Assembly: GCF_988242995.1 (NCBI RefSeq)
Contig: NZ_OZ547043.1
Strand: one strand, 5' to 3'
DNA: 64,000 nucleotides
The notes under the pieces are model-generated. The model was not told the DNA's origin and did no database searches. It saw only the letters and a list, made by a program, of their open reading frames with translations. The position numbers were made by a program, and so were the translations under genes. Each line of letters opens with the position of its first letter. The stretch's first letter is position 1. Shown piece after piece: positions 10,359-19,910 of this stretch.

Positions 10359-10388
10359 GCCCGGGCGAACCGGGCTTTGTTTTATTTC
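10359..10388 (+). terminator. Rho-independent terminator after phoH
   Basis: GCCCGG GCGAA CCGGGC hairpin followed by TTTGTTTTATTT. Confidence 0.7.
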
Positions 10389-10902
10389 ATTAACAGCAAA
10401 GACTTTCACTTCAGGTTAACGTTCAGGGGGGCGACTTTGAGCGTGTTGATAAGCTGAAATGAATTCTGGTTTAGATACTCTTACCAGGCATTTTTCGTCA
10501 TAGCACCCGACCAGTGTAATGCCGCCAGCGCGGAGAGTTTTTTGCCTATCTTTTTCCAGCCATTCAACCTGTACAGGAGGTCTGGTGCCAATTTTGCGTA
10601 TGAGGTTTAATCAGCAATGGGCCATAATTTGACTGACTGATTAACACCGAATATATTCTCCTGATTTTATTTTTTAGGGATAATATTAAAAATATAAGGT
10701 TAATCTTAATTAATTCTTCAGCTAATATTGTGTGTTGTTATTTTTTGTGGACGGCAAGCCGCAATGGCAAAATAGGTATGGTTGTAATAATCAAAACATG
10801 ATACTAACTATATATAGATCGTTGAATTGTTGGCATGTAACTCGCTACAGCGAGTAGCGTTAGTAATGAAATATAATCAACATGGATAGGTGAAGATTAA
10901 TT

Positions 10903-11589
10903 ATGAGCTTTATGGTTTTTGTAACTTGTTTGACAATTGCATTTGTCGCCGGTTTTGCTGTTGCCAGAAAATTGACACTCCGAAAAGTTGCCTCATCGGT
11001 AATCATCACTAGATCGCAACCAGTCCCTTCCTCTGCAACTTCCCCTGCGGCTAAGGCGTCGACAAGGAGCTATACACCGCAGAAAACCTATCGTGACTCT
11101 CGTTGGCAAGAACGAGATGAGTTGTTCCAGGGAATGGTTGCCGAAGGTATTTTATTGGAAGGAAAAGAGTGGTTAATTACGCGTTGTGAAAAAATTTATT
11201 TTGATAATCTGGAGAAATGGTTTGGACATTATTGTCATATCCATTGCCAGGTCTCTCTGGGGCGCTTGATCAACTTTCCAGAACAACCCGAGTTTAGCGA
11301 AGAAGAAAGAAAGCGTTTCTTTGCAATTTATAATGGAATGGCAATGGATTATGTTCTGGTTTCAAAGAAGAACAATAAAATAGTCTGTGTTATTGAGCTG
11401 GATGATCCGAGTCATGAAAGGGCAGATCGCATTATTCGTGACCGTTGGTTGAATACGATTATGACTATTGCACGGGTGCCTTTTGTACGAGCTTCTGTCA
11501 CTAAATTGGATGAAATCCCTCCGGTCTGGGATACCCGTGACAAAATTCGCCCATTAGCCGCGGCGACAAAGGGTGAACCGTTGCATTAA
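10903..11589 (+). CDS. Hypothetical membrane-anchored protein with C-terminal PD-(D/E)xK-like nuclease-type domain (resembles DUF2726 / NERD-like fold); orphan accessory gene
   Basis: 228 aa ORF; AGGTGA RBS about 10 nt before ATG; N-terminal hydrophobic helix (aa 4-24), S/T/P-rich linker, C-terminal block MDYVLV..VIELDDPSHERADRIIRDRWL..VPFVR; visibly AT-rich; not recognised as a K-12 gene. Confidence 0.65.
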   Translation: MSFMVFVTCLTIAFVAGFAVARKLTLRKVASSVIITRSQPVPSSATSPAAKASTRSYTPQKTYRDSRWQERDELFQGMVAEGILLEGKEWLITRCEKIYFDNLEKWFGHYCHIHCQVSLGRLINFPEQPEFSEEERKRFFAIYNGMAMDYVLVSKKNNKIVCVIELDDPSHERADRIIRDRWLNTIMTIARVPFVRASVTKLDEIPPVWDTRDKIRPLAAATKGEPLH

Positions 11590-11596
11590 CTAAGTA

Positions 11597-11674
11597 CCCC
11601 GGTCGGGGCTCCTCATCCCCCCGGTGTGTGCAATATACGAAAAAAAAGCCCGTACTTTCGTACGAGCTCTTCTT
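11597..11674. repeat. Copy 1 of a 78-bp module that equals the serX downstream terminator region
   Basis: Near-identical (3 differences) to 12489-12565, which sits directly 3' of intact serX; contains CCCCGGTCGGGG and CGTAC..GTACG hairpins and an A8/T8 run. Confidence 0.7.
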
Positions 11675-12385
11675 GTGCACAGAAAACCCCCAGCTAGGCT
11701 GGGGGTTCCGGAAAGCTTTCAGCTTTGAGCCAGTTATTAAAACCCCTTTTGATTTGTTAAAACACCTTGCGGTCTGGCAACTGCAAGTGTCAAACAAGAA
11801 ATCAAAAGGGGGTCCCAATGGGGGACGAAAAGAGCTTAGCGCACACCCGCTGGAACTGTAAATATCACATAGTTTTTGCGCCGAAATACCGAAGACTGGC
11901 GTTTTACGGAGAGAAGCGTAGGGCGATAGGCAGTATTTTGAGAAAGCTGTGTGAGTGGAAAAGCGTACGGATTCTGGAAGCAGAGTGCTGCGCAGATCAT
12001 ATCCATATGCTTGTGGAAATCCCACCCAAAATGAGCGTATCCGGCTTTATGGGATATCTGAAAGGGAAAAGCAGTCTGATGCTTTACGAGCAGTTTGGGG
12101 ATTTGAAATTCAAATACAGAAACAGGGAGTTCTGGTGCCGAGGGTACTATGTCGATACGGTGGGTAAGAACACGGCGAAGATACAGGACTACATAAAGCA
12201 CCAGCTTGAAGAGGATAAAATGGGAGAGCAGTTATCGATTCCCTATCCGGGCAGCCCGTTTACGGGCCGTAAGTAACGAAGTTGGATGCAAATGTCAGAT
12301 CGTGTGCGCCTGTTAGGGCGCGGCTGGTAACAGAGCCTTACAGGCGCATTTGAAAAACCTCCGGCTATGCCGGAGGATATTTATT
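11675..12385 (+). mobile_element. IS200-like insertion sequence (IS200/IS605 family), about 0.71 kb
   Basis: Single 152-aa HuH transposase; subterminal hairpins CCCCCAGC-TAG-GCTGGGGG (11687-11705) and CCTCCGGC-TAT-GCCGGAGG (12358-12376); no terminal inverted repeats; size as expected for IS200; exact ends approximate. Confidence 0.8.
11818..12276 (+). CDS. tnpA: IS200 transposase TnpA (Y1 HuH)
   Basis: 152 aa MGDEKSLAHTRWNCKYHIVFAPKYRR..HIHML..RGYYVDTVG; HuH motif and catalytic Tyr region; ORF track extends upstream to an in-frame start at 11767. Confidence 0.9.
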   Translation: MGDEKSLAHTRWNCKYHIVFAPKYRRLAFYGEKRRAIGSILRKLCEWKSVRILEAECCADHIHMLVEIPPKMSVSGFMGYLKGKSSLMLYEQFGDLKFKYRNREFWCRGYYVDTVGKNTAKIQDYIKHQLEEDKMGEQLSIPYPGSPFTGRK

Positions 12386-12391
12386 TAAATA

Positions 12392-12488
12392 TGGCGGTGA
12401 GGGGGGGATTGACTCGCTTCGCTCGCCCTGCGGGCAGCCCGCTCACTGCGTTCACGGTCTGTCCAACTGGCTGTCGCCAGTTGTCGAA
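12392..12488 (-). repeat. Degenerate copy of serX 3' end (19-bp exact direct repeat 12392-12410) plus 78 bp of unrelated sequence; att-like scar
   Basis: TGGCGGTGAGGGGGGGATT is identical to the 3' end of intact serX at 12572-12590; upstream part does not fold into a tRNA. Confidence 0.6.
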
Positions 12489-17553: not shown

Positions 17554-18204
<651 letters not shown>

Positions 18205-18958
18205 GATGAAACCCCGCTTTTTTTATTGATCGCACACCTGACAGCTGCCTCTAAAATAGAAGCACCAGAAGTACTGACAGATGTTGCACTGCTGTGTGTA
18301 GTAATAAATCAGCCCTAAATGGGTAAAATATAAAACTAATGGATTACATCTGATTTCAATCTAGCCATTACAAATCTTAAATCAAGTGTTAAACATGTAA
18401 CTAAATGTAACTCGTTATATTAAAATGTTAATCTTAAGGTTTTGTTAAGTTTAGAAATGATAGAAAAGTTGTACATTTGGTTTTTATTGCACAATTTTAA
18501 AAAATCATACAAATGGTGCTAACTTACTAATAATGCATATAAAAAATATTTCGGTGTAGTCCTTTCGTCATGTAAAACGTTGTTGTTTTTTCTTCACACC
18601 TCCGTGGACAATTTTTTACTGCAAAAAGACGAGGTTTGTCACGGCTTGTGCGCAAGACATATCGCAGCAATCAGCGACGGGCAAGAAGAATGGCTGTCTG
18701 GTGATTTTTGATTGCGGAAAACGGAGATTTAAAAGAAAACAAAATATTTTTTTGCGTAGATAACAGCGTATTTACGTGGGTTTTAATACTTTGGTATGAA
18801 CAAAAAAAGAAAAATACAACGCGCGGGTGAGTTATTAAAAATATTTCCGCAGACATACTTTCCATCGTAACGCAGCGTTAACAAAATACAGGTTGCGTTA
18901 ACAACCAAGTTGAAATGATTTAATTTCTTAAATGTACGACCAGGTCCAGGGTGACAAC
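18205..18958. promoter_or_regulatory. csgD-csgB divergent intergenic control region
   Basis: 754 bp, strongly AT-rich; contains GTTACATTTAGTTACATGTTTAACAC on the csgD strand (about 18386-18414), consistent with the OmpR/CpxR region of the csgD promoter. Confidence 0.8.
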
Positions 18959-19414
18959 ATGAAAAACAAATTGTTATTTATGATGTTAACAATACTGGGT
19001 GCGCCTGGGATTGCAGCCGCAGCAGGTTATGATTTAGCTAATTCAGAATATAACTTCGCGGTAAATGAATTGAGTAAGTCTTCATTTAATCAGGCAGCCA
19101 TAATTGGTCAAGCTGGGACTAATAATAGTGCTCAGGTACGGCAGGGAGGCTCAAAACTTTTGGCGGTTGTTGCGCAAGAAGGTAGTAGCAATCGGGCAAA
19201 GATTGACCAGACAGGAGATTATAACCTTGCATATATTGATCAGGCGGGCAGTTCCAACGATGCCAGTATTTCGCAAGGTGCTTATGGTAATACTGCGATG
19301 ATTATCCAGAAAGGTTCTGGTAATAAAGCAAATATTACACAGTATGGTACTCAAAAAACGGCAATTGTAGTGCAGAGACAGTCGCAAATGGCAATTCGCG
19401 TGACACAACGTTAA
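18959..19414 (+). CDS. csgB: CsgB minor curlin nucleator
   Basis: 151 aa from ATG 18959 (MKNKLLFMMLTILG); ORF track begins upstream at 18932. Confidence 0.93.
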   Translation: MKNKLLFMMLTILGAPGIAAAAGYDLANSEYNFAVNELSKSSFNQAAIIGQAGTNNSAQVRQGGSKLLAVVAQEGSSNRAKIDQTGDYNLAYIDQAGSSNDASISQGAYGNTAMIIQKGSGNKANITQYGTQKTAIVVQRQSQMAIRVTQR

Positions 19415-19454: not shown

Positions 19455-19910
19455 ATGAAACTTTTAAAAGTAGCAGCAATTGCAGCAATCGTATTCTCCG
19501 GTAGCGCTCTGGCAGGTGTTGTTCCTCAGTACGGCGGCGGCGGTAACCACGGTGGTGGCGGTAATAATAGCGGCCCAAATTCAGAGCTGAACATTTACCA
19601 GTACGGTGGCGGTAACTCTGCACTTGCTCTGCAAGCTGACGCCCGTAACTCTGATCTGACCATTACCCAGCACGGCGGCGGTAACGGCGCAGATGTTGGC
19701 CAAGGTTCTGATGACAGCTCAATCGATCTGACTCAGCGTGGTTTCGGCAACAGCGCTACTCTTGATCAGTGGAATGGTAAAGATTCTACTATGACTGTTA
19801 AACAGTTCGGTGGCGGTAACGGTGCTGCTGTTGACCAGACTGCATCTAACTCCAGCGTTAACGTCACTCAGGTTGGCTTTGGTAACAACGCGACCGCTCA
19901 TCAGTACTAA
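19455..19910 (+). CDS. csgA: CsgA major curlin subunit
   Basis: 151 aa with five imperfect S-x5-Q-x-G-x-G-N-x-A repeats. Confidence 0.97.
   Translation: MKLLKVAAIAAIVFSGSALAGVVPQYGGGGNHGGGGNNSGPNSELNIYQYGGGNSALALQADARNSDLTITQHGGGNGADVGQGSDDSSIDLTQRGFGNSATLDQWNGKDSTMTVKQFGGGNGAAVDQTASNSSVNVTQVGFGNNATAHQY

Follow-up and report, generated by a model that had tools for sequence, protein, structure and literature searches.

The csgD–csgB intergenic region of a natural Escherichia coli strain is a canonical curli control region with nine differences from K-12

The 754 bp that separate csgD from csgB in the stretch of DNA analysed here (64 kb; hereafter the window) are almost certainly, with a probability of roughly 0.96, the canonical divergent curli control region of E. 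coli, in a natural strain of a phylogroup D-like lineage. All testable defining features of this family of control regions are present, and the region is therefore a member of the family and not a look-alike. No observation speaks against this identification.

Results

Location and composition of the spacer

The open reading frames (ORFs) together with K-12 and RefSeq annotation place the csgD–csgB spacer at 18205..18958. It is flanked by two divergent genes within the csgGFED / csgBAC gene order:

17554..18204, minus strand: csgD coding sequence (216 aa), an ORF heading csgDEFG
18959..19414, plus strand: csgB coding sequence (151 aa), an ORF heading csgBAC; curli minor subunit CsgB in K-12 and relatives

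In E. coli GN02461, which carries the identical spacer, and in most relatives the csgD product is annotated as 'biofilm master transcriptional regulator CsgD' (WP_000481500.1). In the annotation of K-12 and of all RefSeq relatives examined, csgB starts from the ATG at 18959; an in-frame ATG further upstream (18932) is not annotated as a start. The order ycdZ-csgGFED / csgBAC-ymdA-ymdB-clsC is that of K-12, with 97.9% identity over 6 kb. The literature likewise gives 754 bp for the csg intergenic region of E. coli (PMC12713406).

With a GC content of 34.5% as compared to 50.8% for the window, the spacer is the most AT-rich stretch of the window. The minimum for 300-bp stretches in the whole window (25.7%) is reached at 18295..18594, and the longest stretch of the window without an ORF of at least 90 aa (727 bp) lies in the spacer region. 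An earlier note, made from the sequence alone, had described a 754-bp AT-rich csgD–csgB region among the longest non-coding stretches; judged by the ORF boundaries and the GC content, this description was correct to the base.

The spacer is carried by 5,329 of 5,426 complete E. coli genomes at a coverage of at least 80%, with a median of one copy and a maximum of two. Approximately 1% of the complete genomes are without most of it; S1-CAM-01-A, for example, retains the last 61 bp. Plasmids account for six of the spacer matches, and in 17 records the identity is only 80-90%. In strain AVS0935, csgD is annotated as a truncated pseudogene.

Comparison with K-12

The corresponding region of K-12 MG1655 (NC_000913.3, 1103197..1103950) has the same length of 754 bp, the same flanking genes and the same orientation. 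The earlier note had proposed an alignment with K-12, and this alignment revealed that the two regions are not identical: 745 of 754 positions agree (98.8%), and nine single nucleotide differences, without any insertion or deletion, are distributed between -81 and -451 relative to the csgD start:

18432: T in the window, C in K-12; -81
18444: G in the window, A in K-12; -93; rare
18519: C in the window, A in K-12; -168
18582: G in the window, C in K-12; -231; rare, inside the initial RcdA range
18594: T in the window, C in K-12; -243
18693: G in the window, A in K-12; -342
18704: A in the window, C in K-12; -353
18713: T in the window, A in K-12; -362
18802: A in the window, T in K-12; -451

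No difference between the two strains falls in the leader, the -10 element, the OmpR/RstA site, the MlrA palindrome, the CsgD box or the csgB promoter block. The 227 bp at 18205..18431, which comprise the leader, the core promoter with its -10 element, the RcsB zone and the OmpR site, match K-12 to 100%, and the same holds for the DNA between 18803 and the csgB start codon, in which the CsgD box and the csgB promoter are located. The agreement at 745 positions and the presence of OmpR site, MlrA palindrome, -10 element, CsgD box and leader bear out the earlier identification of this DNA as the curli csgD–csgB control region.

At the DNA level csgD, csgE and csgB are 99.1-99.2% identical to their K-12 counterparts and csgG is 97.6% identical; the spacer is thus comparable to the former three and more similar to K-12 than csgG and csgA are. 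CsgD differs from the K-12 protein in three residues and CsgB in two. K-12 CsgD has a serine at each of the differing residues (S19/P, S46/A, S110/A). The variant WP_000481500.1 is annotated in most sampled genomes, from several lineages, and this prevalence makes the K-12 protein the less typical allele. The csgA gene (19455..19910) shows only 93.2% DNA identity to K-12, with 31 of 456 bases but only three amino acids changed, while its neighbours csgB, csgC, csgD and csgE are 98.5-99.2% identical. Judged from this pattern, the csgA divergence looks like an allelic replacement or a recombination patch.

The csgD leader and core promoter

Three elements close to csgD were located:

18205..18351, minus strand: csgD 5' untranslated leader of about 147 nt, matched by Rfam ES056; no differences from K-12
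18358..18363, minus strand: csgD -10 hexamer TAGATT, read from the sequence; transcription start about 7 nt downstream
18388..18411, minus strand: OmpR site D1 (high-affinity, activating) GTTACATTTAGTTACATGTTTAAC; approximately -37..-60, identical to K-12

The sole Rfam match in the search of the spacer was RF02752 (ES056) at 18260..18351 on the minus strand, covering model positions 1-92 of 92 with 119.7 bits (gathering score 43, E = 8.5e-23). ES056 is catalogued as an 'sRNA'; here it makes up nucleotides 1-92 of the leader of the csgD mRNA and is not a free-standing gene. Its 5' end at 18351 places the csgD transcription start at approximately this position, with an uncertainty of 1-2 nt. 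The leader folds somewhat better than shuffled sequence (z-score -2.28), and its sub-blocks +40..+90 and +122..+146 are kept in Enterobacter.

TAGATT is what we take to be the csgD -10 element, as in the K-12 promoter. A sigma-70 consensus scan of the region returned two promoter-like sites, compared with a mean of 3.9 in shuffled sequence, and neither of them is the csgD promoter. Such a miss is expected for this promoter, which is weak, depends on activators and also uses sigma-S. Since a sigma-70 consensus is unfit for such a promoter, its position was derived from the Rfam leader match and the identity to K-12. Small RNAs target the csgD leader (PMC13304067), and the leader in the window, unchanged from K-12, would be expected to hold their target sites.

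A single occurrence of GTTACATTTAGTTACA was found in the 64 kb; it lies on the minus strand at 18396..18411 and has no mismatch, the chance expectation being 0.15 when one mismatch is allowed. The OmpR site has no mismatches to GTTACANNNNGTTACA and none to the RstA consensus; it also matches the RstA box TACATTTAGTTACA. It is centred about 50 bp upstream of the csgD start, in agreement with the D1 OmpR site described at approximately -51 (PMC13304067), and is kept in the Enterobacter spacer. The earlier note had reported an OmpR/CpxR-bound sequence at about 18386-18414. The site lies within this range and the OmpR part of the claim is supported by a perfect match, whereas the CpxR part goes back to the literature, the best CpxR consensus match at this place having two mismatches.

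A 21-mer representing the core of the OmpR site was searched for in 100,044 species genomes, one per species, and occurred at a single locus, in Enterobacter. Neither the E. coli nor the Salmonella representative yielded it, although 26 of 27 aligned E. coli loci have the site unchanged; the discrepancy may reflect a variant in the representatives concerned or a limitation of the scan. A clinical isolate, E. coli WCHEC4533 (NZ_CP028589.2), has a 10-bp deletion aligned to 18395..18404, by which one repeat unit of the OmpR site is gone. This deletion, which does not occur in the window, would be expected to abolish curli activation.

Upstream elements and the central spacer

Three further segments lie upstream of the OmpR site:

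18433..18449, minus strand: BasR/PmrA-like direct repeat; -82..-98, including variant -93 (18444) and adjoining variant -81 (18432)
18465..18498, either strand: MlrA palindrome AAAGTTGTACA-N12-TGCACAATTTT; approximately -114..-147, upstream of the OmpR site
18522..18805, no strand assigned: central spacer, poorly conserved, with six of the nine K-12 differences (18582, 18594, 18693, 18704, 18713 and 18802)

Written on the csgD-sense strand, the BasR-like box of K-12 (CTTAATAAAACCTTAAG) has no mismatches to YTTAAKNNNNNYTTAAK, which we assume to be the BasR/PmrA-type consensus, and that of the window (CTTAACAAAACCTTAAG) has one. The segment is not conserved in Enterobacter. BasR is among the proteins that bind the csgD promoter (PMC12388358). 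The MlrA palindrome shows two mismatches to AAAATTGTACA(N12)TGTACAATTTT, the same as in K-12, and is part of a conserved block at 18454..18521. A 33-bp MlrA palindrome has been described between the IHF and OmpR sites (PMC3913822).

Footprints published for the region cover -192..-308 for the initial RcdA binding site (PMC3535384), and -201..+28 for H-NS and -31..+54 for RcsB (PMC12388358). The central spacer contains the initial RcdA range, and the upstream end of the H-NS range extends into it. Consensus scans of the whole spacer for IHF, CpxR, CRP, Cra, Fur, H-NS and RcdA gave weak matches or none; such matches were counted only where they coincided with a footprint range from the literature. 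A repeat search over the spacer yielded short AT-rich matches of the kind expected by chance and no remnant of a mobile element. Within the central spacer itself we found no block of at least 80% identity to Enterobacter, no Rfam match and no notable repeat. The poly-T tract at 18741..18748 is one T shorter in 13 of the 23 sampled genomes than in the window and K-12, and many lineages consequently have a spacer of 753 bp.

The centre of the spacer (approximately 18595..18720) has a GC content of about 40% as compared to 25% on the csgD side, and three mechanically called ORFs (43, 47 and 64 aa) overlap with it. These properties could point to an unannotated small gene or small RNA hidden in this segment, a reading that we consider highly improbable and have rejected. 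The centre gave no Rfam match even at E-values up to 1, is not framed by promoter-like or terminator-like sites, is the least conserved part of the Enterobacter alignment and is unannotated in K-12 and in about two dozen RefSeq records examined. Moreover, polymorphism is dense: five of the nine K-12 differences (18594, 18693, 18704, 18713 and 18802) and many population polymorphisms are found in and around it.

The csgB side

Towards csgB, two elements were identified:

18806..18902, plus strand: csgBAC promoter block and start of the csgB leader; at least 80% identity to Enterobacter, no differences from K-12
18824..18834, plus strand: CsgD-binding box CGGGTGAGTTA; -473..-483 from the csgD start, upstream of the csgB promoter

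The CsgD box is identical to that of K-12 and has no mismatches to CGGGKGAGNKA, which we take to be the CsgD-box consensus; Enterobacter has the near-match TGGGTGAGATA. From its sequence, CATACT at 18854..18859 is the probable -10 element of csgB. The csgB leader at 18875..18906 contains a direct repeat of GCGTTAACAA, whose copies at 18875 and 18895 are 20 bp apart, and the first copy (18875) is kept in Enterobacter. A terminator-like hairpin, GGTTGTTAACGCAACC with a T-run behind it, is predicted on the minus strand at 18906..18891.

Conservation in Enterobacter and likeness to Salmonella

The csgD–csgB spacer of Enterobacter is 765 bp long, has the same divergent architecture and is 58.5% identical overall in a global alignment. 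It keeps the OmpR site, the MlrA box, the core promoter, the leader blocks, the CsgD box and the csgB promoter, whereas the central part of about 285 bp cannot be aligned with the window. The conserved blocks are:

18205..18229 and 18261..18311: leader
18326..18415: core promoter and OmpR site
18454..18521: MlrA palindrome and adjacent AAAATCATACAAAT motif
18806..18902: CsgD box and csgB promoter
18935..18958: csgB ribosome-binding region

All nine differences from K-12 fall outside these blocks, which are defined by a single out-group sequence, or at their ragged edge. The corresponding Salmonella region (agfD-agfB), likened here from the literature, has the same divergent architecture, and six OmpR sites as well as IHF and H-NS have been described for it (PMC13304067). 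Reportedly, the effect of H-NS in Salmonella is the reverse of that in E. coli (PMC12713406).

Frequency of the alleles and relatives of the haplotype

Allele frequencies were determined in 23 records, chosen at regular intervals along the similarity ranking; these and four further close relatives were fetched and aligned. The alleles of the window are common or in the majority at 18432 (14/23), 18519 (11/23), 18704 (16/23) and 18802 (18/23), and at three of these positions (18432, 18704 and 18802) it is K-12 that carries the less common allele among the 23 sampled genomes. Minor alleles are those at 18594 (4/23), 18693 (5/23) and 18713 (6/23). The G residues at 18444 and 18582 were each found in one of 23 records, in both cases GN02461. 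Exact 30-mers searched in 5,426 genomes detected -93 G in at least 52 and -231 G in at least 56 of them, and the K-12 sequence at -93 in at least 4,692; these counts are lower bounds, as a genome with a second variant inside the 30-mer escapes detection.

Of 5,372 RefSeq complete-genome records, only that of E. coli GN02461 (NZ_CP095533.1) has exactly the 754-bp haplotype of the window, and ten other records are one base off. GN02461 also shares the CsgD protein WP_000481500.1 with the window. An origin of the window from GN02461 was nevertheless rejected, as its flanks are only 99.2% identical over 26 kb and it retains pgaABCD-dgcT, which is missing from the window. The spacers of TUM14771, MS 69-1, ETEC1738, PCN033 and O166:H15 strains are 99.6-99.9% identical to that of the window and are accompanied by the same CsgD (WP_000481500.1). 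As each of the close relatives has a private SNP, the window carries the core haplotype of a small clade rather than a mutation of its own. Among RefSeq complete genomes, pig isolates give the best match over 20 kb, with 99.7% identity.

The -93 G is also present in O103 and other Shiga toxin-producing (STEC) strains with 5.6-Mb genomes, whose spacers are outside the 60 closest matches of the window. Its occurrence in unrelated STEC suggests recurrent mutation or recombination at 18444.

Absence of the pga operon in the vicinity

Between phoH and the tRNA-Ser gene the window contains about 2.1 kb (10384..12470), in contrast to about 8.1 kb with pgaABCD and dgcT in GN02461. The 2.1-kb segment comprises a DUF2726 gene (10903..11589) and an IS200-family transposase gene (11767..12276). 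O166:H15 strains, among others, have the DUF2726 arrangement but no IS200, and the whole segment is covered in only two complete genomes, at 96% identity. pgaABCD is the operon for the biofilm polysaccharide PNAG. With pgaABCD missing from this segment, the strain is one without a major biofilm matrix system.

Discussion

Significance of the nine differences

In our judgement, the nine substitutions relative to K-12 most probably mark the lineage and are neutral or close to neutral. Their position outside the conserved blocks argues for this reading, with Enterobacter as the one out-group. Single-base changes in this region had large effects in Salmonella and in O157:H7 (PMC10459773; PMC13304067), which makes 'neutral' a judgement and not a demonstration. 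The statement in the earlier note that strain-specific changes here alter the biofilm phenotype holds as a general truth of the literature; in the window, the nine variants avoid every characterised core element.

A functional effect of the change at -93 is improbable. It would mean that -93 G, with or without -231 G, alters the binding of BasR, IHF, H-NS or RcdA and thereby shifts the level of curli or its dependence on temperature or osmolarity. The substitution at -93 turns the perfect BasR/PmrA-type box of K-12 into a box with one mismatch and at the same time improves an IHF consensus match on the same bases from two mismatches to one. Consensus motifs of this kind, however, readily find matches in AT-rich DNA. 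The two positions lie within published footprints, -93 in the H-NS range and -231 in the initial RcdA range (PMC12388358; PMC3535384), but a csgBA reporter was unchanged upon deletion of either basR or rcdA (PMC12713406). Each of the two alleles is found in only about 1% of genomes, and -93 G recurs in the unrelated O103 STEC; in the Enterobacter alignment, on the other hand, they are located in unconserved segments with local identities of 24% and 57%. Finally, curli expression can be altered by single-base promoter changes (PMC10459773), yet the known mutations that change the phenotype are in or beside the core promoter, which is unchanged here. Taken together, we regard an effect of this kind as very unlikely.

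A slightly less likely version of it is that the pairing of -93 G and -231 G would be an adaptive regulatory variant that retunes curli by a weaker BasR box, a stronger IHF-like site and a change in the zone of RcdA/H-NS nucleation. As this strain is also without pga, it may lean more on curli for biofilm formation. Near-neutral lineage markers remain our preferred interpretation of the nine differences. The locus and the polymorphism in its spacer are well known, and SNPs of the csgD–csgB spacer have been used to trace E. coli to its host source (PMC5007776). The nine lineage SNPs of the window, two of them rare, could serve as strain markers in a similar manner.

Regulatory scheme

From the K-12 and Salmonella literature (PMC12713406, PMC3535384, PMC13304067, PMC3913822, PMC12388358) we infer the binding of proteins and RNAs to this spacer and its regulatory outcome. 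A weak leftward promoter with a start at about 18351 and TAGATT as -10 element would direct transcription into csgDEFG. It would be activated from the OmpR site (approximately -37..-60) and the MlrA palindrome (approximately -114..-147), with the help of IHF, and silenced by H-NS, CpxR and RcsB. The leader of 147 nt is predicted to act as landing pad for the repressing Hfq-dependent small RNAs OmrA/B, McaS, RprA, GcvB and RydC. CsgD, once made, would bind to its box at 18824..18834 and thereby turn on the rightward csgBAC promoter.

The present analysis adds nothing new on the mechanism; its use lies in a precise map of element coordinates. The csgD–csgB spacer is a textbook case of signal integration at a bacterial promoter, and it controls curli-based biofilm building in E. 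coli. As all characterised core elements are as in K-12, the wiring of the cis-elements in this strain is predicted to be K-12-like.
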